A DNA stretch of 43,652 nt from a virus, in UHGV virus genome UHGV-0201380. One strand, written 5' to 3'. Positions 8,915 through 39,632 of the stretch are shown piece after piece; position 1 is the stretch's first letter, and every line of letters begins with the position of its first letter. Under the pieces are notes generated by a model. It ran no database searches and was not told the DNA's origin. It was given only the letters and a program-made list of their open reading frames with translations. A program made the translations under genes and the position numbers.

Positions 8915-9178
8915 TCAAATTTCGTTATTGCTCTTACCATCCACCGTGAGCGTTACCGCAGCGTCCTGGTACTGCTCCTGCACCGCCGCAAGGATACGTG
9001 CGCCCAGCTCTTTGCAACCACCCTCGGGGTCTTCAAATAGGTCGTACTCAGGGCGCGGCTGCGGCTCCTGCGTTGCCGGTTGCTGCAACTGCACAGTGCA
9101 GTATGGGATTGGGTTGTTTATGTCGTTGCCCAGCACCAGCATAGCGCTGGTCACAATGATGTTGAATACATTAACCAT
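8915..9178 (-). CDS. Hypothetical early protein with hydrophobic N-terminus and acidic C-terminal half
   Basis: Track ORF 8915..9208. An internal ATG (MVNVFNIIVTSAMLVLG...) follows GGAGA and overlaps the upstream stop, so about 87 aa. Confidence 0.5.
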   Translation of the reverse strand: MVNVFNIIVTSAMLVLGNDINNPIPYCTVQLQQPATQEPQPRPEYDLFEDPEGGCKELGARILAAVQEQYQDAAVTLTVDGKSNNEI

Positions 9179-9404
9179 AAAGTTGTCTCCAGTCGTTGAT
9201 AATGCCAAGATTCACGGCGTCCAGCACAGTGCGGGCAGCCATTTCGGTGTAGGTATCCACAAATTCTAAAGGGGATTCCTGATTAGTGTCTTTGTCAGAG
9301 AATATGACCACAGTGTAGTTGTATTCTGCGTATACCCGATTGCACCACACGGGCCAGAGTTCATGGCCCGGATAGACCAGTATTGCTTTCATATGAAACC
9401 CCAT
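9171..9404 (-). CDS. Hypothetical early protein
   Basis: 77-aa track ORF; the likelier start is the ATG about 12 nt in (MKAILVYPGHELW), which follows a G-rich Shine-Dalgarno. The conserved 30-bp hairpin element lies just upstream. Confidence 0.5.
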   Translation of the reverse strand: MGFHMKAILVYPGHELWPVWCNRVYAEYNYTVVIFSDKDTNQESPLEFVDTYTEMAARTVLDAVNLGIINDWRQLYG

Positions 9405-11383: not shown

Positions 11384-12205
11384 AACAATATCTCCTTACA
11401 TAGTGATTAGTAGCGTAACCATAGCGACGATATCCCGGAGGGATAGGAGCGGAGGTTACAAGATTCTAGGTAATGCTTCCCTCCCTACGGTCAGTCATAC
11501 AGGGCATTACTAGGGGATACTAGTGACTACTAGTGAGTAGTAGTAAGTAGTGTGTATATAGTGCCCTAAAACCCTCCTACTCCTGTAACATCATTTCATG
11601 ACAGCTTTCGAATGAAAGTAAGAGCAAGGGGATAGCAAAGAGATAGCGCCGGGATAGTGTTGGGTGAGGATGTGCGCCCTAGTGGGGAGCGCGCAGCGTA
11701 GCATATAATCGGCACAATGTAAAGCACTAGGGATAGCCAGTGGATAGCCTAGTGCATACTAGGGATAGCACCGTGACGCACTACAGCGCACTAGGCAGGC
11801 CCACTATGGCCCCACAATGCAGGCACTAGGCGGGCCCACTATGGACGCGCAAAATAAGCAAGGCAGAGCGCACCCCTACGGCCCACAGGGAGCGCACAGG
11901 GATAGCCCCTAGTGCCCCGTAGAGCGCACAGGAGCCACTCAGTGCCACGCACAGGCCAAGCCGTGGGGCAGCACTAGCGATAGCCCCAGCGCAGCGCAGG
12001 GAGCCACTGAGGCCCTCTGAGGCTTCCGCTATAGCCACGGTCTTAGCTGCCGTGGCGCTCCACACCTCAGAGAGCGCCCTAGGGCCGTCTAGACGTCTAG
12101 GCACCCACCCCACCCCTCCTTTTATGCGCTAGGCACCCCCTATGGGGGCAATTGGCGTCGTTGAGGGTGAGGGAGGCTCAAGGGCGAGTATAATAATTTT
12201 TGGTT
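11384..12205. repeat. Non-coding repeat-rich region, probable physical genome terminus or terminal-repeat neighbourhood
   Basis: About 820 bp with no ORF of 60 aa or more on the coding strand. Dense short direct repeats (GGGATAGC about 8 times, CACTAG/CTAGTG about 9 times), a 21-bp direct repeat CACTAGGC(A/G)GGCCCACTATGG twice about 39 bp apart, and tagt-type microrepeats at 11521-11560. Lies between the last late gene and the early region. Confidence 0.5.
11575..11591 (-). promoter_or_regulatory. Candidate phage-RNAP promoter-like motif, copy A
   Basis: Exact 17-mer TCCTACTCCTGTAACAT (minus strand ATGTTACAGGAGTAGGA), one of three identical copies in the window, here within the terminus region. 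Confidence 0.35.
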
Positions 12206-12667
12206 TCAGATATACACCTGCCCCGGGGTGAAGGCCTTGTGTTGCTCTTGACGTTTCTCTAGTACCCACTTGCAGATAACTTCGTAGGAGCTGTGCTTCT
12301 TCATGTAACGCTTACCGTCCTTCCAGAACTCCCCGCGCCAGCAGGTGCCAGTGTAGTATACACCCCTAGGATGTTCCCGCTTAGACCTGCGTGCGTTACA
12401 GTTGTTTTCGCTAACCGTAGCTAAGCGCAGGTTCTCTAATCTGTTGTCACCGGGGTTTTGGTTGATGTGGTCCACCACATATCCGTCTGGAATAGGCCCG
12501 TTGTGTAGTTCCCAGATGAGGCGGTGTGCCTGTATCTTTCTACCAGATACCTGTACCACCCAGTAGCCACGAGTGTTGCGGGTACCCGCTGGAGCACCGG
12601 CGCGCCTACCCTTGAGCCACACCAAGCAGCTAGGGGATGTTGTGTCATATTTGATGTTCATAGACAT
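12206..12667 (-). CDS. HNH homing endonuclease (HNH plus AP2-like DNA-binding region)
   Basis: 153 aa with HRLIWELHNGPIPDGYVVDHINQNPGDNRLENLRLATVSENNCNA. Last gene before the terminus region. The upstream intergenic region carries GTATCTCTA direct repeats. Confidence 0.85.
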   Translation of the reverse strand: MSMNIKYDTTSPSCLVWLKGRRAGAPAGTRNTRGYWVVQVSGRKIQAHRLIWELHNGPIPDGYVVDHINQNPGDNRLENLRLATVSENNCNARRSKREHPRGVYYTGTCWRGEFWKDGKRYMKKHSSYEVICKWVLEKRQEQHKAFTPGQVYI

Positions 12668-12763: not shown

Positions 12764-14719
12764 TTAGAGATACACCTCCCAGGCTACCTGGGATACATCC
12801 GCTGCGTTACTACTCCTAATCACGAAGCTGTTTAGGTCCGGATTAGGTGTAGGTACATCCTGGTTCTGTGCTACGCCAGTAACCGTCAAGGCCCCAGCAC
12901 TAGAAGGAAAGGTTAACCGCGTCAACTTGACCTCAGACACCCACTTGAAGGAGTTAGCTACGCTGCCAAAGTTTCCGCGTACACGAGCGTTGACCGTAGC
13001 CTCACCCGCAACCAGTGTTGCCACTCCGCGAATGCTTGTGTCGTCCAGTAAGTTCCTGGACATGCGCGGAGGCGTAGGCTGCACAGTATAACCACTCAGT
13101 AATGCCCAAGACACACCGTGACCGGTCATGTCATTATTGGACATAGATACCATGGTAGGGTTAATGCCCATAGTCCCGTGGAAGTACACAGCTCTTCCGG
13201 TACCGTCGTAGCGCATGCTCACGTCATCAATCTCCAGGGATGTCTGCGCTGTCTCAGCCACATCCTTAGTGACGAAGATGTGAGAGCTGGAGTTGCGCGT
13301 GTACCGACCGCCTTTAACACGGCCCCCGTTGATTCGCACACCATTCTGGCTACCGTGAGCCTCGCAGTCATAAACGTAGCCACCACCGTACGAACAGTTA
13401 AAGCCAGAGCGTACGTTGTCATAAGCTAGGCACTCCCTATAGATAGGGAAGGCTACACCGGTGTTGGAGGCGAACCCGTCCAGAGCTGCACGGTAAGCTC
13501 GACAGTTCAAGTACTCTACCCCGTTAGTGCGCGCTTGGAACCCATCGTCAGCACTGTCGTACGAAACGCAGCGAACGAACTTCACACGCTTACCAATGTC
13601 GTGAGTATCAAATCCAGCATGGGTTGTGCTGTAGGCTTCGCAGTTAACGCCTAAGAACTCGATAGGCTCTCCCCACTTGTCCCCGTCTGCAGTGCTCTGC
13701 CAGTTCAAAGAGATTGCGTGGCGTACGTCCATAGCGTGGATATCGTGTACTTCCGTGTCCTCTGAGCAGCCGAGCACCTCTACCCCGTACCATCCGATGT
13801 TGTAGAAGTACGTACCCTTAACGGTGCTGTCTACGCAGTTATTGAACTTGATAGCGCTACGCCCTTCTATATCAGAAGCCCCTGGGCGTTTGTTGCCAAT
13901 AATAACCCCGTCCTGGATGTGCAAGTCCGCGGCAAAGTTGGCAGAGATACCGATAGTAAAGAACCGGTTCAAATCGTCGTAGCCGAACTCGTTGATGTAC
14001 GGGGATACTAAGGTTACGTTCTCCACCATTGTCGGGATACCTACTTCCGCAGCATCAGACAGGTAGTAGTTATAGTGCAGCGCTTTATCCAGCCGAATGC
14101 TGGTGACGCCACCGGAGGTGCTAACACCCACCACTTTCCTAATCTGGGAAATCTTTACCCCGTAGGTGTTAGGCCCACCGTCGCATAGCTTGTTAGAGCG
14201 AAGATACAAGTACGTACCTTTTACCACAGACAAAGCACCAGCAGCCACCGTAATGACTTTGCTGCCCGCCGCAGCGTCCGCCGCTAACGGTACGAACGCC
14301 GATGGTGCCGCGCCGATAATATTAAGCACCTGACGCGCAACCGCAGCGTCCGGTAGGATTCTTCCGGTATCGGTAAACTCTAGCGTAGAGTTGCTTTTGA
14401 TGTTGAGCACACTCGTGGCCTGCAGGACTGTGTCCACAACCAGGTGCCTATTAGGCGCGCTCATGAACGTGACTATGCCTGCCCAATTGCTGAACCAGGA
14501 GCTGTATGCCGGGCCCGTGAATTTACGGAGCAGATACCCACCGGGCACAGCAAACACAGTCCCGTTATCTACTACCGACGCAGCAGTAGTAAAGGTGAAA
14601 TCCCCACCACCACTGCCCAGTAGGATAATCTTGTCCTGCACCTGAAAGTTTGGATATGCTACCATGCTCGCCAAGTCGGAGAATACCCGCTCTGGAGCTA
14701 CTAATCTAATTAACGCCAT
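12764..14719 (-). CDS. Tailspike protein, probable polysaccharide depolymerase (beta-helix)
   Basis: 651 aa, Gly/Asn/Thr/Ser/Val-rich composition typical of parallel beta-helix tailspikes. Encoded after the lysis cassette at the genome end, as in KP34-like phages. Substrate unknown. Confidence 0.7.
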   Translation of the reverse strand: MALIRLVAPERVFSDLASMVAYPNFQVQDKIILLGSGGGDFTFTTAASVVDNGTVFAVPGGYLLRKFTGPAYSSWFSNWAGIVTFMSAPNRHLVVDTVLQATSVLNIKSNSTLEFTDTGRILPDAAVARQVLNIIGAAPSAFVPLAADAAAGSKVITVAAGALSVVKGTYLYLRSNKLCDGGPNTYGVKISQIRKVVGVSTSGGVTSIRLDKALHYNYYLSDAAEVGIPTMVENVTLVSPYINEFGYDDLNRFFTIGISANFAADLHIQDGVIIGNKRPGASDIEGRSAIKFNNCVDSTVKGTYFYNIGWYGVEVLGCSEDTEVHDIHAMDVRHAISLNWQSTADGDKWGEPIEFLGVNCEAYSTTHAGFDTHDIGKRVKFVRCVSYDSADDGFQARTNGVEYLNCRAYRAALDGFASNTGVAFPIYRECLAYDNVRSGFNCSYGGGYVYDCEAHGSQNGVRINGGRVKGGRYTRNSSSHIFVTKDVAETAQTSLEIDDVSMRYDGTGRAVYFHGTMGINPTMVSMSNNDMTGHGVSWALLSGYTVQPTPPRMSRNLLDDTSIRGVATLVAGEATVNARVRGNFGSVANSFKWVSEVKLTRLTFPSSAGALTVTGVAQNQDVPTPNPDLNSFVIRSSNAADVSQVAWEVYL

Positions 14720-15328
14720 TTATCCTCCGGTCTTAGTAAGAGCTGCCACCGCAGCATTTACATTCTTATACTGATTCCCAATGGCCTTGCTCTGCCACTG
14801 TCTGCGCCCCCATAGGCCCCAGCACACTTTATTGCGCTGCCCGTTAATATACTGAGAACAGTCGAAGGTCCAGCGGTTGCTACCCTTGTACACCCAACCG
14901 ATGCCCGGGGATTTCTGCTGGTACTTGCTAATATAGCGCCAGTCCAGTACGGCCTTTCCAGCTGCTGCGTAATCCAGGTTCTTGAGATGCCGCTTCACGG
15001 AGCTGCCGTTGAAGCCAGCTACTCCTACGTTATAAATAAAGTCTATAGACCCAACCAGAGCTACATCAGAGAGCTGCATAGGAAGCCCGTCAAGGGCTTT
15101 TGCGTGTTCCCCTGCTGATTGTATCAGTTGCTTCTGACAATCGCTCAGCGTGGCTCTCTGGCCCATCTTGACGCCCTTTGTCTCGCCATAGCAGATGGTA
15201 GGGACACCGGCACTGTCCCTATAGGCGGGGAGGCTTAGACCTTCGTTATGCTTAATCACTCCAGTGATAGCGCCGCCGAGCATGGTGGCCCCCGTAAGGG
15301 CCGCCACAACCTTAGTCCTTAAACTCAT
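14720..15328 (-). CDS. SAR endolysin (T4 lysozyme-like, GH24 muramidase)
   Basis: 202 aa. N-terminal weakly hydrophobic Gly/Ala-rich segment (VVAALTGATMLGGAITGV) is a signal-anchor-release domain. EGLSLPAYRDSAGVPTICYGET matches the T4 lysozyme Glu/Asp/Thr catalytic region, and GVAGF is the conserved later motif. Confidence 0.85.
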   Translation of the reverse strand: MSLRTKVVAALTGATMLGGAITGVIKHNEGLSLPAYRDSAGVPTICYGETKGVKMGQRATLSDCQKQLIQSAGEHAKALDGLPMQLSDVALVGSIDFIYNVGVAGFNGSSVKRHLKNLDYAAAGKAVLDWRYISKYQQKSPGIGWVYKGSNRWTFDCSQYINGQRNKVCWGLWGRRQWQSKAIGNQYKNVNAAVAALTKTGG

Positions 15329-15563
15329 ATTTAATAGTCCCCTTACGTGCCTGCTCCTCTAGGAGCTTGAATGTACGTCGCTTGTAATACGCATTCCACG
15401 CCAGGGTTAACACTGCGCACACCGTCGCAGTGATGAAGCTGATAGTGCTCCAGTTCCAGCTCATTAACTCTGCCAACCAACCTCCTGATACCGTAGCGCC
15501 GGTAACTGCTGCACCTGCCCGGGTAGCGATGTCTGCTCCAACCATGTCTCCCACCTTAATCAT
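15312..15563 (-). CDS. Holin (pinholin-like, two TMDs)
   Basis: 83 aa with two hydrophobic segments (the first Gly/Ala-rich, the second WSTISFITATVCAVLTLAW) and a charged C-terminus. Overlaps the endolysin start. Confidence 0.6.
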   Translation of the reverse strand: MIKVGDMVGADIATRAGAAVTGATVSGGWLAELMSWNWSTISFITATVCAVLTLAWNAYYKRRTFKLLEEQARKGTIKYEFKD

Positions 15564-15960
15564 CCTGCTGCCCCTTCTTCCTGAACAGCTTACGAATCAC
15601 CAGAATGACCACTAGGAAGACCAGAGGAATACTGGCCCCAGCTAATCCGGCGAGGATAAGACTGTAACTATCATTGTTAACCACCTGCAGGCGTTCTGCC
15701 TGGATTGTCCCGGTGCTAATAGTTTGCACCTGCTTCTTACTGGACGTGTCCAAAGTGCCTACGTTAGAATCCTGTACATCAGTTTTGTTGGTGGTGCTGG
15801 AGTCCACCTTGTTATTCAAGCCAACGGTTTGTTTGGTGTTCTCGGCACCAACCTGAGCAGATACATCCGGCTTAGAACCAACTAAGCCGGTGAGTGCAGA
15901 GGTCGCCGAGCAACCAGTCAGAGTAACCGCGAGCAGCAACCCAGCGACCAGTTTACGCAT
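15556..15960 (-). CDS. Spanin, unimolecular-type topology (lipoprotein with C-terminal TMD)
   Basis: 134 aa. N-terminal signal with lipobox LTGC (MRKLVAGLLLAVTLTGCS) and C-terminal TM segment (LILAGLAGASIPLVFLVVILVI) followed by basic residues. No separate i-spanin or embedded o-spanin seen. Confidence 0.5.
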   Translation of the reverse strand: MRKLVAGLLLAVTLTGCSATSALTGLVGSKPDVSAQVGAENTKQTVGLNNKVDSSTTNKTDVQDSNVGTLDTSSKKQVQTISTGTIQAERLQVVNNDSYSLILAGLAGASIPLVFLVVILVIRKLFRKKGQQDD

Positions 15961-16142
15961 TAGCTAGCAGCCTCCACTGCGGCCACCGCGGCTTCAAGCG
16001 CAGCAATCTTGGTATCGAAGGCAGCACCAGTCTGGGCCACGTTCTGCGGCTGCGTAAGGATAGCATACAGGTCCTTACCGAGAATGTTCAGCTGACGCAA
16101 CAGCTCCTGCTGTTGCGCTGAGGTTGCTTTTGCAATTGCCAT
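15960..16142 (-). CDS. Hypothetical small Ala/Gln-rich protein
   Basis: 60-aa ORF between the terminase module and the lysis cassette; translationally coupled to the spanin gene. Confidence 0.4.
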   Translation of the reverse strand: MAIAKATSAQQQELLRQLNILGKDLYAILTQPQNVAQTGAAFDTKIAALEAAVAAVEAAS

Positions 16143-16153
16143 GTGTACTCTCC

Positions 16154-16528
16154 TTATTCTGCCGCATCAGTGGCGGCTACGAATGCACTCTGCAGTGCAG
16201 TGAACGAATCATCAAACGCTGTACCGGAGCCCTCACCGAGCGGCATACCTGTACCTGTAAGGGCAACGTAGCCGGTCTTAGAGAGCTGTGACAGCATGCT
16301 GAACAGGCGCGCCTGCAGCGTACCGTCATCCTTAAAGGCTGTACCGGCACGGGTAGCCGTATAGCCCTGGGACTGCATGTACGTGAAGAACGCGTTCAGC
16401 TTAGTCAGGGCAGTCGTACCTACGAAGCCTACGTTGTAGTCCGGCTGCACCTGCTTCTCCAGGTTCTGGCACGTGCCTACAATGGCGTACTGGACGTCCG
16501 CAGTTTTAGCTGCGATGATTGATGCCAT
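16154..16528 (-). CDS. Hypothetical protein
   Basis: 124-aa ORF immediately downstream of the large terminase. No recognised domain. Confidence 0.5.
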   Translation of the reverse strand: MASIIAAKTADVQYAIVGTCQNLEKQVQPDYNVGFVGTTALTKLNAFFTYMQSQGYTATRAGTAFKDDGTLQARLFSMLSQLSKTGYVALTGTGMPLGEGSGTAFDDSFTALQSAFVAATDAAE

Positions 16529-37136: not shown

Positions 37137-37592
37137 TCACTTGGCGTCAATGCACTTACCTCTGTGTTGCTCGTATAGTTCTGAGTACTTGTCGGACTTG
37201 GCAATGTCTTGTTCCAGCTTATCCTTGTTCCCGGCGCGCAGTCTGTACTTGAGCCGGTTCCCCAGGCAGTATCCGTAGAACTGCTCTTTCGTCATACTGC
37301 GTGCAATCACCTCAATTGCCTCCAGGTCCGGGAAGAACTGGTAGTGCTTGGGTGAGTTCACTGCGTCGGGCGCTTGTGTGCTGGTTATGGGGACTTCCCC
37401 CACTACATGGAAGTAGTCCGCGCGCCAACCGCCAGCTAGGTCTCCGCTTAGTGTAATTGTGGTGCCACTAACCTCAAGCACCCCCCTGGAGGCGTATGGG
37501 GAGATATGAAGAGACTCGCAGATTCGAGACCAGTCACCCGACACGTGCGTAGCTTTACGAACTACCACATCACCAACTTTAATATTACTCAT
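37137..37592 (-). CDS. Hypothetical protein, DUF3310-like conserved T7-group protein
   Basis: 151 aa; C-terminal region NSPKHYQF ... EAIEVIA ... GNRLKYRLRAGNK resembles the DUF3310 pattern. Start overlaps the endonuclease VII stop (ATGA). Confidence 0.55.
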   Translation of the reverse strand: MSNIKVGDVVVRKATHVSGDWSRICESLHISPYASRGVLEVSGTTITLSGDLAGGWRADYFHVVGEVPITSTQAPDAVNSPKHYQFFPDLEAIEVIARSMTKEQFYGYCLGNRLKYRLRAGNKDKLEQDIAKSDKYSELYEQHRGKCIDAK

Positions 37593-38032
37593 TTAATAGT
37601 CTCCCGTGCTTTACGTCGTGCCCGGGCCTTGCGGGCCTTGAGCTTCTGTGCCTGCGCCAATTCTTCCGGCGTCTTGTGCGTATAGTATAGCATATCCGTA
37701 GGTTCGCGGTCTAAGTAATCGGCGACCCTACGTAGAGATTCAGCAATAGCCCCAGAAGATTGCATGCTACCAACAATCCAGCGCCCAGCGGCAGATGCCA
37801 CTTTGCCTTCCCCTCCATTGCACGAGCGATGAAGAGCACCCCGAATACGCCCAGTAATATGATCGTGGTCAACGACAACAGAATCACCAGTTACCCCCTT
37901 GATTGTGAAGTCCAAAGGTTTGCCACAAAGGAGGCAGATACCTCCCTGGTCTTTGGCAAGCTTAATTGCCACGGAGCGAATCTGTGCCCGTGTAATCTTC
38001 CGCAGACTCATACGTATATGAACCCCCACCAT
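37589..38032 (-). CDS. Endonuclease VII-type Holliday junction resolvase
   Basis: 147 aa with CLLCGKPLD ... VVDHDHITGRIRGALHRSCNGGEGK (zinc-binding and DHDH motifs of the T4 endo VII family); basic C-terminal tail. Confidence 0.85.
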   Translation of the reverse strand: MVGVHIRMSLRKITRAQIRSVAIKLAKDQGGICLLCGKPLDFTIKGVTGDSVVVDHDHITGRIRGALHRSCNGGEGKVASAAGRWIVGSMQSSGAIAESLRRVADYLDREPTDMLYYTHKTPEELAQAQKLKARKARARRKARETIK

Positions 38033-38381: not shown

Positions 38382-39306
38382 TGTCTGGGTGCTCCTGTAT
38401 CCACTGTATATGCTGTTTATGGTACTCGTGCAGCGAATGCACCCAGTCACGCAGACTGGGAGTAGTCAACAGTGACATCAGATACAGGTACGCTGAATCT
38501 GACGGGGAGCGCCGCAGGAACAGGCATTCTGCCTCTGCGAGTACATCTTGGTTGTTTCGAGCGTAAGCCGCTACAACGAATTCTGCGGCGTCCTGCTCTG
38601 AGGTAATAGGGTAGATAGCATCAAAGGCCGTTCGCTTCCCACAGAGCTTCCCATCAAGCAATGTGATGCCTTTGACGTTATCTGCGTCATCTCCTGCTAG
38701 CATCTGCCACCAGAAGAACTTAGTGCCATGCGCTCGTACCGGCATAGCCTGGGTATCATCCCACTTAATCCATCCGAAGGGGTTATCCAAGGCAGGCCAT
38801 ACGGTTCCGGTTGGGATATCGAACCGGGCCATAGGGCTGAGCCAGGAGTCCTTGTCCTGAGACATCAGGATTCCACGGTCCCCGAAGCTGTACGAATCCA
38901 TTATGAACAGGTCATCCGCCTCGAAGTAGTCACTGCTTACCACTTGTATGCCATGCTCAGAATACTGGTCCGGGTTCTCAATCAGGTGCCGCTTCAACGG
39001 TGCCTTGAGTGGCAGCTCCTGACGCTTATTGCGGTTCCCTTGGTACGGCTTAGCCGTAGGCAGGTGCCAGCGCAGGCACTTAGCACACCCCGTAGGCGTC
39101 AGATACGCCACTGCTTCTGAGCAGCCGACCAGGAACATGTCCTCAAGCACCAGCTGATAGAAGCGGCGTATCGCGGTATCCAAACGTTTCACTGTAGCAG
39201 CAGATTTATAAACTGTGAAATCCGCGTCGTACAGCAGAATCTTCCCAGAGTTCTGCGGAGCTAACTGCTCCCCGAGCTGGGACAAGTCAACCCCGTTGAT
39301 AATCAT
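38338..39306 (-). CDS. 5'-3' exonuclease (FEN-like, T7 gp6-like)
   Basis: 322 aa, with LLYDADFTVYKS near the N-terminus and GDDADNVKGI later, a pattern typical of 5'-3' exonuclease/FEN family proteins. Confidence 0.85.
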   Translation of the reverse strand: MIINGVDLSQLGEQLAPQNSGKILLYDADFTVYKSAATVKRLDTAIRRFYQLVLEDMFLVGCSEAVAYLTPTGCAKCLRWHLPTAKPYQGNRNKRQELPLKAPLKRHLIENPDQYSEHGIQVVSSDYFEADDLFIMDSYSFGDRGILMSQDKDSWLSPMARFDIPTGTVWPALDNPFGWIKWDDTQAMPVRAHGTKFFWWQMLAGDDADNVKGITLLDGKLCGKRTAFDAIYPITSEQDAAEFVVAAYARNNQDVLAEAECLFLRRSPSDSAYLYLMSLLTTPSLRDWVHSLHEYHKQHIQWIQEHPDNGEDVCEGNEPAGD

Positions 39307-39467
39307 CAGACCCCCGTAACCTTCTTGGTCAACTTACGCGCCCAGGATTCCCAGGCGGTCGGCGCCTGACTGTTTTCTACCTTCTCAAATGCCCAGCACA
39401 GGATAGCTACAGGCACTAGCGGGGCTACTAACAGGAAGTAAAATGATTTTGCAAAGAAGTTACGCAT
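39306..39467 (-). CDS. Small predicted membrane protein (below track size cutoff)
   Basis: Hand translation gives about 53 aa (MRNFFAKSFYFLLVAPLVPVAILCWAF...) with one hydrophobic segment. Stop overlaps the exonuclease ATG by 1 nt. Coordinates approximate. Confidence 0.4.
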   Translation of the reverse strand: MRNFFAKSFYFLLVAPLVPVAILCWAFEKVENSQAPTAWESWARKLTKKVTGV

Positions 39468-39470
39468 TCT

Positions 39471-39632
39471 CTACACCTTTAAGTGGTCAGTAAAAGCATG
39501 GATTGCACGGCCCAGCATAGCCACGCCCTTAGAGCCTCCGGCTACACTGAGCGCCAGCGCCATTAGCATCAAGCTGATTGCAAGTAGTACCAGTGCTGGG
39601 ACTGAAATTATGTAGGATATAAATTTACGCAT
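39471..39632 (-). CDS. Small predicted membrane protein (below track size cutoff)
   Basis: Hand translation gives about 53 aa (MRKFISYIISVPALVLLAISLMLMALALSVAG...). ATG overlaps the upstream stop (TAATG) and is preceded by GGAGGG. Coordinates approximate. Confidence 0.4.
   Translation of the reverse strand: MRKFISYIISVPALVLLAISLMLMALALSVAGGSKGVAMLGRAIHAFTDHLKV

Follow-up and report, generated by a model that had tools for sequence, protein, structure and literature searches.

Organisation of the Lysis Locus

The window, i.e., the whole stretch of DNA analysed here (UHGV-0201380, 43,652 nucleotides), represents the complete genome of a Drulisvirus, a KP34-like Klebsiella podophage. Three minus-strand ORFs fill exactly the interval 14720-15960, in which the initial annotation had located a three-gene lysis cassette, and a further small ORF is found just upstream of them. 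As given in the ORF list, these features are:

15960-16142, minus strand: small ORF immediately upstream of the spanin gene, 60 aa
15556-15960, minus strand: putative unimolecular spanin (u-spanin) gene, 134 aa, ATG start
15312-15563, minus strand: putative holin gene, 83 aa, ATG start
14720-15328, minus strand: putative endolysin gene, 202 aa, ATG start

The order of transcription in the cassette is spanin, holin, endolysin, and the genes overlap as had been described, the spanin stop and the holin start by 8 nt (ATGATTAA), and the holin stop and the endolysin start by 17 nt. Since a 1.9-kb region comprising the cassette is conserved at 90-96% identity across about 200 phage genomes, and all three proteins match curated lysis families in Pfam and PHROG profile searches, this arrangement is not due to chance. 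The NCBIfam models gave sub-threshold matches alone on the cassette proteins, for example spanin2_3 at 22 bits vs 80. To delimit the cassette as a separate transcription unit, no suitably placed match was found in a promoter and terminator scan of the 11.5-19 kb region: the sigma-70 promoter-like matches were 5, vs 5.7 in shuffled controls, and terminator-like matches were commoner than in the shuffled controls (11 vs 4.3). At the sequence level, the comparisons reported below confirmed the cassette as a standard KP34-type lysis module, with a predicted one-piece spanin, a small holin and a membrane-tethered lysozyme.

The 134-aa Protein Is a Predicted Unimolecular Spanin

The 134-aa protein had been proposed as a u-spanin on account of an N-terminal lipobox and a C-terminal TMD. 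Both features are present. The N-terminus, MRKLVAGLLLAVTLTGC, contains the lipobox LTGC, ending in Cys17 and followed by Ser18 at the +2 position; it was recognised with the pattern [LVI][ASTVI][GAS]C and, just above threshold, by the Pfam model LPAM_1 (20.3 bits vs a cut-off of 20), and a PROSITE-like scan run from every start codon of the coding strand yielded no other credible lipobox ORF. According to the +2 rule for lipoprotein sorting, which is established for Enterobacteriaceae, a Ser in place of an Asp at this position is a predicted outer-membrane sorting signal. Besides the signal, a single other hydrophobic segment was observed, at residues 104-122 (19-residue Kyte-Doolittle mean 2.66), within a C-terminal TMD of about aa 101-122; this is followed by RKLFRKK, and the basic tail (RKLFRKKGQQDD) is predicted to be cytoplasmic. 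The intervening region, about aa 18-100 and presumably periplasmic, is rich in Ser/Thr/Asn/Gln and free of Cys, Cys17 being the sole cysteine of the protein.

Moreover, homology points in the same direction. The protein matches phrog_1804, 'Rz-like spanin', with an E value of 6e-52, and 52 of 125 residues (42%, E 3e-26) are identical to T1 gp11, with residues 12-130 of 134 covered. The T1 gp11 family has been delimited by Kongari at no less than 40% identity over at least 40% of the length, and the protein studied here lies within both limits. T1 gp11 is an experimentally validated u-spanin, which complements a lambda Rz/Rz1 defect, and lipoylation and outer-membrane disruption have been shown for T1 gp11 alone; the spanins of KP34, F19 and NTUH-K2044-K1-1 were placed in its family, whose members are nearly all found in pinholin/SAR-endolysin cassettes (Kongari et al. 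2018, PMC6139136). In our family alignment, the lipobox Cys and a TAQxGAENxKQ motif are conserved, and among the relatives, 49 cluster representatives out of 1.84 billion proteins, most of the full-length ones have a lipobox and a C-terminal TMD. An AlphaFold2 monomer built from a 37-sequence family alignment showed a helix at residues 97-127 (pLDDT 75-88), and confidence was limited to the signal and C-terminal helices; residues from about 30 to 75 were modelled as coil with pLDDT < 50 and without strands, whereas β-sheets are predicted in the periplasmic domain of T1 gp11. By topology and homology, the assignment of the 134-aa protein as a u-spanin of the T1 gp11 family is supported. The gene is already called 'U-spanin' or 'Rz-like spanin' in public records of near-identical phages.

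Search for a Two-Component Spanin

The check suggested in the initial annotation, the search for an embedded out-of-frame lipoprotein ORF, was run together with a genome-wide scan. No minus-strand ORF of at least 20 aa with a lipobox occurs inside or beside the spanin gene, and neither an i-spanin candidate nor an embedded or separate i-/o-spanin pair was found on the coding strand of the whole genome. The genome-wide lipobox scan returned, in addition to the spanin, one ORF (LVAC, 37711-37818) inside the endonuclease VII gene; having no signal-peptide character, it was rejected as an o-spanin and regarded as a chance match. N-terminal TMDs occur in just three ORFs of the coding strand, two of them for early proteins of 53 aa at a distance of about 24 kb and the third for a 97-aa protein with a TTG start (8915-9208), about 6 kb off, and none of the three adjoins the lysis genes.

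Two other readings of the 134-aa protein were weighed against the u-spanin. In the Klebsiella phage KPPK108.1 (OK583892), homologous genes are labelled 'putative lysis Rz protein' and 'putative lysis Rz1 protein', which would make the 60-aa upstream ORF the i-spanin (Rz) and the 134-aa lipoprotein the o-spanin (Rz1), and in our genome the stop of the 60-aa ORF does overlap the spanin ATG by 1 nt. The 60-aa protein, however, has neither a signal sequence nor a membrane-anchoring hydrophobic segment (its maximum KD19, 1.12, falls in the Ala-rich C-terminus), and it belongs to phrog_7375, a family of unknown function; its counterpart in KP34 has 52 aa and, instead of abutting the spanin gene, is separated from it by a gap of 22 nt. 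By contrast, the 134-aa protein has a C-terminal TMD of its own, and its homology to the one-piece T1 gp11 extends along the entire protein. We regard the Rz/Rz1 reading as extremely improbable and, as far as sequence can tell, as refuted, and consider the labels 'Rz' for the upstream ORF and 'Rz1' for the lipoprotein in the KPPK108.1 record to be wrong. The 60-aa ORF was also set aside as a lysis regulator, having no TMD and a 1-nt coupling that is not conserved in KP34. A role outside lysis could be imagined as well: exclusion functions are possible for phage lipoproteins, Llp of T5 and Cor of N15/phi80 being among the reported examples, and some automated JGI annotations call the 134-aa protein 'outer membrane lipoprotein SlyB'. 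That it acts in superinfection exclusion or receptor blocking has, nonetheless, hardly any likelihood, given its C-terminal TMD, which exclusion lipoproteins do not have, the position of its gene inside the lysis operon, with which it overlaps, among the late genes, and the fact that the genome encodes no other spanin in the lipobox and N-terminal-TMD scans; furthermore, its homologue T1 gp11 functionally replaces Rz/Rz1 (PMC6139136).

The Endolysin and the Holin

For the 202-aa endolysin, the expectation was a SAR N-terminus fused to a T4-lysozyme-like domain, and the sequence supports it. Residues R4 and K6 precede VVAALTGATMLGGAITGVI, with a KD19 of 1.82 and a Gly/Ala/Ser/Thr content of 58%, and the SAR-like domain, aa 1-25, contains no Cys, a feature that distinguishes R21-type refolding from the disulfide isomerisation of P1 Lyz. 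The lysozyme domain PF00959 was detected at 73.9 bits vs a cut-off of 22.3, and phrog_7 endolysin at E 3e-35. The best PDB matches are 3HDE (the SAR endolysin R21 of phage 21) and 4ZPU (RrrD), whose alignments start at residue 2 and run through the SAR region and the catalytic triad; the latter, E29-x8-D38-x5-T44, aligns with E35, D44 and T50 of 3HDE and is invariant among 22 endolysin homologues. The identification as a SAR-type GH24 lysozyme of the R21 type is thus supported by these alignments. AlphaFold2 run with the 22 close homologues gave an unusable model (mean pLDDT 38.7).

The alignment to RrrD and T1 gp12 delimited an insertion of about 31 aa, at about aa 139-170, which is conserved and carries the invariant Cys157 and Cys169, and the protein ends in a C-terminal tail of about 20 aa. 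The only other cysteines are 46 and 64, which lie near the catalytic Thr44. The endolysin could represent a distinct GH24 sub-lineage, in which disulfides Cys157/Cys169 and Cys46/Cys64, formed only in the periplasm, would contribute redox-dependent activation or stabilisation, or a murein-binding hairpin, on top of the R21-type SAR mechanism; we consider this improbable, but, if true, it would be a layer of control undescribed for SAR endolysins without Cys in the SAR domain.

The 83-aa protein had been described as a pinholin-like holin with a Gly/Ala-rich first TMD. Residues 16-34 (AGAAVTGATVSGGWLAELM) are in fact 63% Gly/Ala/Ser/Thr and weakly hydrophobic, and a strong TMD at about aa 38-60 is followed by a tail with 8 K/R and 4 D/E. 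The protein reaches PF04971 (phage 21 holin S) marginally, at 26.6 bits vs a gathering score of 26.0, and phrog_20 holin at E 4.7e-17; a precomputed PF04971 call is present in 26 of 31 close homologues. In BLASTP it shares 28% identity over 72 aa with the S21-like EssD (E 1e-4), both TMDs being aligned, and the hhalign probability is 56% vs EssD. Its gene is paired, through the 17-nt overlap, with a gene for a SAR-type endolysin. The description thus stands, and the protein is probably a pinholin belonging to the phage 21 S family; the sequence support for a pinholin is weak, and this call is the weakest part of our reading of the cassette. The presence of Met1 and Met7, the latter preceded by a Shine-Dalgarno-like TAAGGTGG, brought to mind a dual-start holin/antiholin motif, but this idea was dropped because Met7 is not conserved, position 7 being Val, Thr, Ile or Asn in the relatives, KP34 included.

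The number of TMDs bears on whether the 83-aa protein might rather be a canonical or class III single-TMD holin making large holes. A single TMD is reported by published predictors (TOPCONS, TMHMM and Phobius; PMC4411677, PMC10194101) and in the KP34 database record, our 19-residue scan also gave one segment > 1.0, a simple hydropathy threshold does not call the putative first TMD, and the similarity to S21/EssD is weak. The predictors, however, are expected to miss a segment of this kind, because the TMD1 of EssD itself has even lower hydropathy (KD15 of 0.6 or less, vs up to 1.0 for residues 16-34). The passing of the PF04971 gathering score, with the same call in almost all close homologues, and an EssD alignment spanning both TMD2 and the SAR-like TMD1 argue against the single-TMD holin, as does a secretory partner endolysin with no need for large holes, so that we judge it unlikely. 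With the endolysin, the question is whether it is instead exported by Sec and cleaved by signal peptidase, being periplasmic as made and otherwise restrained, the holin acting as a timer only. Its N-terminal hydrophobic core is short, Gly23 is replaced by Glu or Lys in some relatives, leaving about 16 apolar residues, G18-G19-A20 is a possible signal-peptidase site (GGA|I), and a 'signal peptide' has been predicted for the JKP2 homologue (PMC10194101). On the other hand, the first 25 residues can be aligned with the R21/RrrD SAR domain as well as with T1 gp12 (SLRxxVxAAxxG...ITG), and RrrD, at 63%, has a similar Gly/Ala/Ser/Thr content. Sun et al. 2009 reportedly found that the SAR segment of R21 stays attached and is incorporated into the active fold, which speaks against cleavage in the aligned endolysin. 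Considering also that published analyses call this endolysin SAR (PMC4411677, PMC6139136), we hold a cleaved enzyme to be quite unlikely and keep the SAR-type assignment.

Comparison with Known Lysis Cassettes

The closest known system is that of KP34, whose gp54, gp55 and gp56 are 99.3, 97.6 and 91.6% identical to the spanin, holin and endolysin described here, and differ from them by point substitutions only. Gene order (u-spanin/holin/endolysin), lengths (134, 83 and 202 aa), overlaps (8 and 17 nt) and position, with the terminase-side small ORFs on one side and the tailspike on the other, are the same. The downstream tailspike, by contrast, is unrelated to that of KP34 (21% identity) and 97% identical to that of NTUH-K2044-K1-1. 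Eriksson et al. 2015 had already described the spanin-holin-endolysin order, with a SAR endolysin, a pinholin and a u-spanin, as a hallmark of "Kp34likevirus" (PMC4411677), and the same conclusion on the lysis cassette was reached for the Drulisvirus JKP2 (PMC10194101).

In T1 (gp13-gp12-gp11) the u-spanin gp11 is homologous and has the same length and topology. The endolysin gp12 is also homologous, including the N-terminal SLK/R...V..A..GA segment (28% identity, E 5e-14), although our endolysin has in addition the insertion and the tail described above, and the holin gp13 resembles ours weakly over the TMD and the tail (E 5e-6, hhalign 72%). The order in T1 is holin-endolysin-spanin, whereas here the spanin comes first. 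The endolysin finds its best solved relatives in phage 21 and DLP12, the SAR domain and the E-D-T triad being aligned, but these have an embedded two-component spanin (rzpD/rzoD) in place of a u-spanin; in the holin, the inter-TMD loop has 4 residues fewer here than in S21/EssD, and there is no conservation of the S21 dual-start antiholin motif. phiKMV, which belongs to the Autographiviridae, follows by description a pinholin and SAR lysozyme strategy (gp44-gp45, Briers et al. 2011 as cited in PMC4411677), but with the order holin-endolysin-Rz/Rz1 and a two-component spanin (PMC4411677), while here a u-spanin is encoded first.

Proposed Lysis Mechanism

The cassette very probably works by the pinholin/SAR-endolysin/unimolecular-spanin route. 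Our analysis shows sequence features and homologies, and from phage 21, phiKMV and T1 we infer all the mechanistic steps, including SAR release, pinhole size and spanin lipoylation in this phage; our literature searches found in-silico descriptions, and no experiments, on Drulisvirus lysis proteins. The three genes would be co-transcribed and probably translationally coupled through their overlaps. The endolysin would be exported by Sec, and its weakly hydrophobic N-terminal SAR domain would keep it tethered to the inner membrane in an inactive state. The spanin would also be exported, lipoylated at Cys17 and, with Ser at +2, sorted with its N-terminus to the outer membrane; since its C-terminal helix would stay in the inner membrane, single molecules would bridge the periplasm through the murein meshwork. 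Meanwhile, the 83-aa holin would accumulate in the inner membrane until a timed triggering opens small holes and the proton-motive force collapses. Depolarisation would free the SAR domain, and the lysozyme would refold as in R21 and degrade the peptidoglycan; since there is no Cys in the SAR domain, refolding would presumably not involve a disulfide switch. The loss of murein may then free the spanin to collapse or oligomerise, leading to the fusion of inner and outer membranes and completing lysis.

Significance

The first reading of the cassette is supported but already known, as it corresponds to the published lysis cassette of Kp34likevirus/Drulisvirus (PMC4411677; PMC6139136), and, as a hallmark of the genus already in print, it carries little weight as a discovery. 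In this phage group, which is in clinical use, homology is still the whole basis of the pinholin and SAR assignments. The spanin, extremely conserved (98-100% identity among the best 120 database matches), would thus be a convenient second model beside T1 gp11. Finally, since T1 is a siphovirus of the Drexlerviridae and the phage studied here is a podovirus of the Autographiviridae, the lysis module is common to unrelated phage lineages, and a T1-type module is documented in both siphoviruses and T7-like podoviruses.

Organisation and context of the lysis genes

The lysis genes occupy 14720–15960 exactly, in both the ORF listing and the sequence, and are transcribed in the order spanin, holin, endolysin, with overlaps of 8 nt (ATGATTAA) between the first two and of 17 nt between the last two. 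The limits of the cassette, the gene order and the presence of overlaps are as the initial annotation had described.

Features of the window around the lysis genes and in the early region (lysis ORFs from the ORF listing)
12206–12667, minus: HNH endonuclease, downstream of the tailspike; 95 % identical to NTUH-K2044-K1-1 ORF35
12764–14719, minus: 651-aa tailspike; 97 % identical to NTUH-K2044-K1-1 ORF34
14720–15328, minus: 202-aa endolysin ORF, ATG start
15312–15563, minus: 83-aa holin ORF, ATG start
15556–15960, minus: 134-aa spanin ORF, ATG start
15960–16142, minus: 60-aa conserved protein, no assigned function (phrog_7375), between terminase and lysis genes
16154–16528, minus: 124-aa conserved protein, no assigned function (phrog_7128), between terminase and lysis genes
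39306–39467, minus: 53-aa ORF, early region, one strong N-terminal transmembrane domain (TMD; 19-residue Kyte-Doolittle mean, KD19, 2.27)
39471–39632, minus: 53-aa ORF, early region, one strong N-terminal TMD (KD19 2.67)

Every long ORF of the window lies on the minus strand. The small and large terminase subunits and the 124-aa and 60-aa ORFs precede the lysis genes, which are followed by the tailspike and then the HNH endonuclease. The stop codon of the 60-aa ORF shares 1 nt with the start codon (ATG) of the spanin gene, whereas its KP34 counterpart encodes 52 aa and is separated from the spanin gene by a 22-nt gap.

The 1.9-kb cassette region matched 252 phage records, 233 of them from Klebsiella phages, with 90–96 % identity over its full length in about 200. 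The best-annotated relatives belong to Drulisvirus (Autographiviridae, Slopekvirinae) and show an identical gene order. The spanin, holin and endolysin are 99.3, 97.6 and 91.6 % identical to KP34 gp54, gp55 and gp56, respectively, whereas the KP34 tailspike shares no more than 21 % identity with that of the window; ORF34 of NTUH-K2044-K1-1 is presumably the K1 capsule depolymerase of that phage. KpV475, which differs in having no HNH endonuclease gene after the tailspike, has a terminal direct repeat that maps to ~11866–12224 of the window (82–88 % identity), indicating that the window is a circularly permuted, reverse-complemented whole genome (~43.6 kb) and that the physical genome ends fall within it. 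In the RefSeq record of NTUH-K2044-K1-1 (NC_025418.1, 3418–3646) the holin CDS between the spanin and endolysin genes is unannotated, and in several other phage records each of the three lysis genes is given as 'hypothetical protein'; such omissions reflect the annotation, not the biology.

The 134-aa protein as a probable u-spanin

The N-terminus of the 134-aa protein (MRKLVAGLLLAVTLTGC) consists of a basic n-region, a hydrophobic core and the lipobox LTGC, and matched LPAM_1 of Pfam at 20.3 bits (cut-off 20). Cys17 is its sole cysteine and is followed by Ser, so that sorting to the outer membrane is predicted by the +2 rule. The only other hydrophobic segment, residues 104–122 (Kyte-Doolittle mean 2.66), is followed by RKLFRKK. 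The protein matched phrog_1804 'Rz-like spanin' (E 6e-52) and shares 42 % identity with gp11 of phage T1 across residues 12–130 (E 3e-26), enough for the 40 %/40 % rule by which Kongari et al. define the family (PMC6139136). The same paper assigns KP34, F19 and NTUH-K2044-K1-1 to the T1 gp11 family and reports complementation of a lambda Rz/Rz1 defect by gp11. Both features of the proposed unimolecular spanin (u-spanin) topology, a lipobox and a C-terminal TMD, are present in the sequence.

A HMMER scan of the full set of 1.84 billion cluster representatives retrieved only 49 related clusters, and most full-length representatives carry a lipobox, mostly with Ser in the +2 position, and end in a TMD plus basic tail. 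In the family alignment the lipid-attachment Cys is invariant, the motif TAQxGAENxKQxxG is conserved and a second one, IxAxxIxAE, precedes the TMD. AlphaFold2, run with this alignment, gave confident helices at the two termini only, and a low-confidence coil in the periplasmic part that did not reproduce the beta-rich structure predicted for T1 gp11.

A two-component spanin was considered as an alternative. No lipobox was found in minus-strand ORFs of at least 20 aa inside or beside the 134-aa gene, embedded out-of-frame ORFs included, and when all start codons of the six frames were scanned for a PROSITE-like lipobox, the 134-aa protein alone qualified as a credible coding-strand lipoprotein. 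Coding-strand ORFs with an N-terminal TMD were the two 53-aa early proteins, ~24 kb off, and a 97-aa TTG-start ORF (8915–9208), ~6 kb off; none adjoins the lysis genes. No i-spanin partner was found next to the lysis genes, in line with the initial claim. In one GenBank record the 60-aa ORF is labelled 'Rz' and the 134-aa lipoprotein 'Rz1'; this annotation was rejected, since the 60-aa product lacks any membrane segment and its KP34 counterpart is shorter and unlinked.

The one other lipobox candidate of the scan, at 37711–37818, lies out of frame within a gene that clearly encodes endonuclease VII (37589–38032), is without signal-peptide character and was rejected. The 58-aa ORF at this locus (37711–37887, minus), out of frame in the endonuclease VII gene and with an LVAC motif and two strong hydrophobic segments (KD19 2.73 and 1.86), was judged a chance ORF. 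The two 53-aa ORFs of the early region, which lie next to each other, may encode small early membrane proteins.

Endolysin and holin

The endolysin matched PF00959 (73.9 bits), and its best solved relatives are the signal-anchor-release (SAR) endolysin R21 of phage 21 (3HDE) and its DLP12 twin RrrD (4ZPU). Both alignments start at residue 2, so that the N-terminal domain itself is homologous, in agreement with the reading of a SAR N-terminus on a T4-lysozyme-like domain. E29/D38/T44 align with the R21 triad E35/D44/T50 and are invariant among 22 homologues. The N-terminus carries R4 and K6, followed by VVAALTGATMLGGAITGVI (58 % Gly/Ala/Ser/Thr, KD 1.82), very similar to the RrrD segment (63 %); that it is instead a cleavable signal peptide seems unlikely. 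Since the N-terminal domain is Cys-free, the disulfide mechanism of P1 Lyz is inapplicable. Unlike RrrD/R21 and T1 gp12, the endolysin has an insertion of ~31 residues (SPGIGWVYKGSNRWTFDCSQYINGQRNKVCW), flanked by the WxY motif and the GLxxRR helix, and a C-terminal tail of ~20 residues, both within residues ~139–202. Cys157 and Cys169, both in the insertion, are invariant in the 22 homologues, and the insertion is also present in endolysins from related podophages of Pectobacterium, Proteus, Providencia and Erwinia.

The holin passed PF04971 (phage 21 holin S) narrowly (26.6 vs 26.0 bits), matched phrog_20 (E 4.7e-17), and aligned over residues 7–74 with both TMDs of EssD, the S21-like holin of DLP12 (BLASTP: 28 %, E 1e-4); profile comparison, with probabilities of 56 % for EssD and 72 % for T1 gp13, was no more than suggestive. 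The putative TMD1, residues 16–34, is 63 % G/A/S/T and weakly hydrophobic, which explains the single-TMD calls by published predictors (PMC4411677, PMC10194101); in EssD the corresponding region, proven to be SAR-like, is even less hydrophobic. A dual start at Met1/Met7 was rejected because Met7 is not conserved.

Proposed lysis pathway

The initial reading is supported, but already known. In KP34, SU503, SU552A, NTUH-K2044-K1-1 and F19, Eriksson et al. 2015 described a holin of ~83 residues along with a SAR endolysin and a u-spanin, inferred that these holins are pinholins, and pointed out the spanin-holin-endolysin order, unlike that of phiKMV (PMC4411677). Kongari et al. 2018 assigned the KP34-type spanin to the family of T1 gp11, noting its association with pinholin/SAR cassettes (PMC6139136), and the same lysis description was given for Drulisvirus JKP2 (PMC10194101), whose spanin is 99 % identical to that of the window. 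A literature search for experimental tests of any Drulisvirus lysis protein found none. Only the conserved Cys-bearing endolysin insertion and the correction of the Rz/Rz1 mis-annotation in one GenBank record are mildly new.

A pinholin/SAR-endolysin/u-spanin pathway is the best explanation for the cassette. Sequence features and homologies were observed directly, and all of the dynamic steps are inferred by analogy with phage 21, phiKMV and T1: the inner membrane would hold the tethered lysozyme while the spanin bridges the periplasm; holin triggering would depolarise the membrane, and the lysozyme, set free, would refold and degrade the murein, after which the spanin would fuse the inner and outer membranes.
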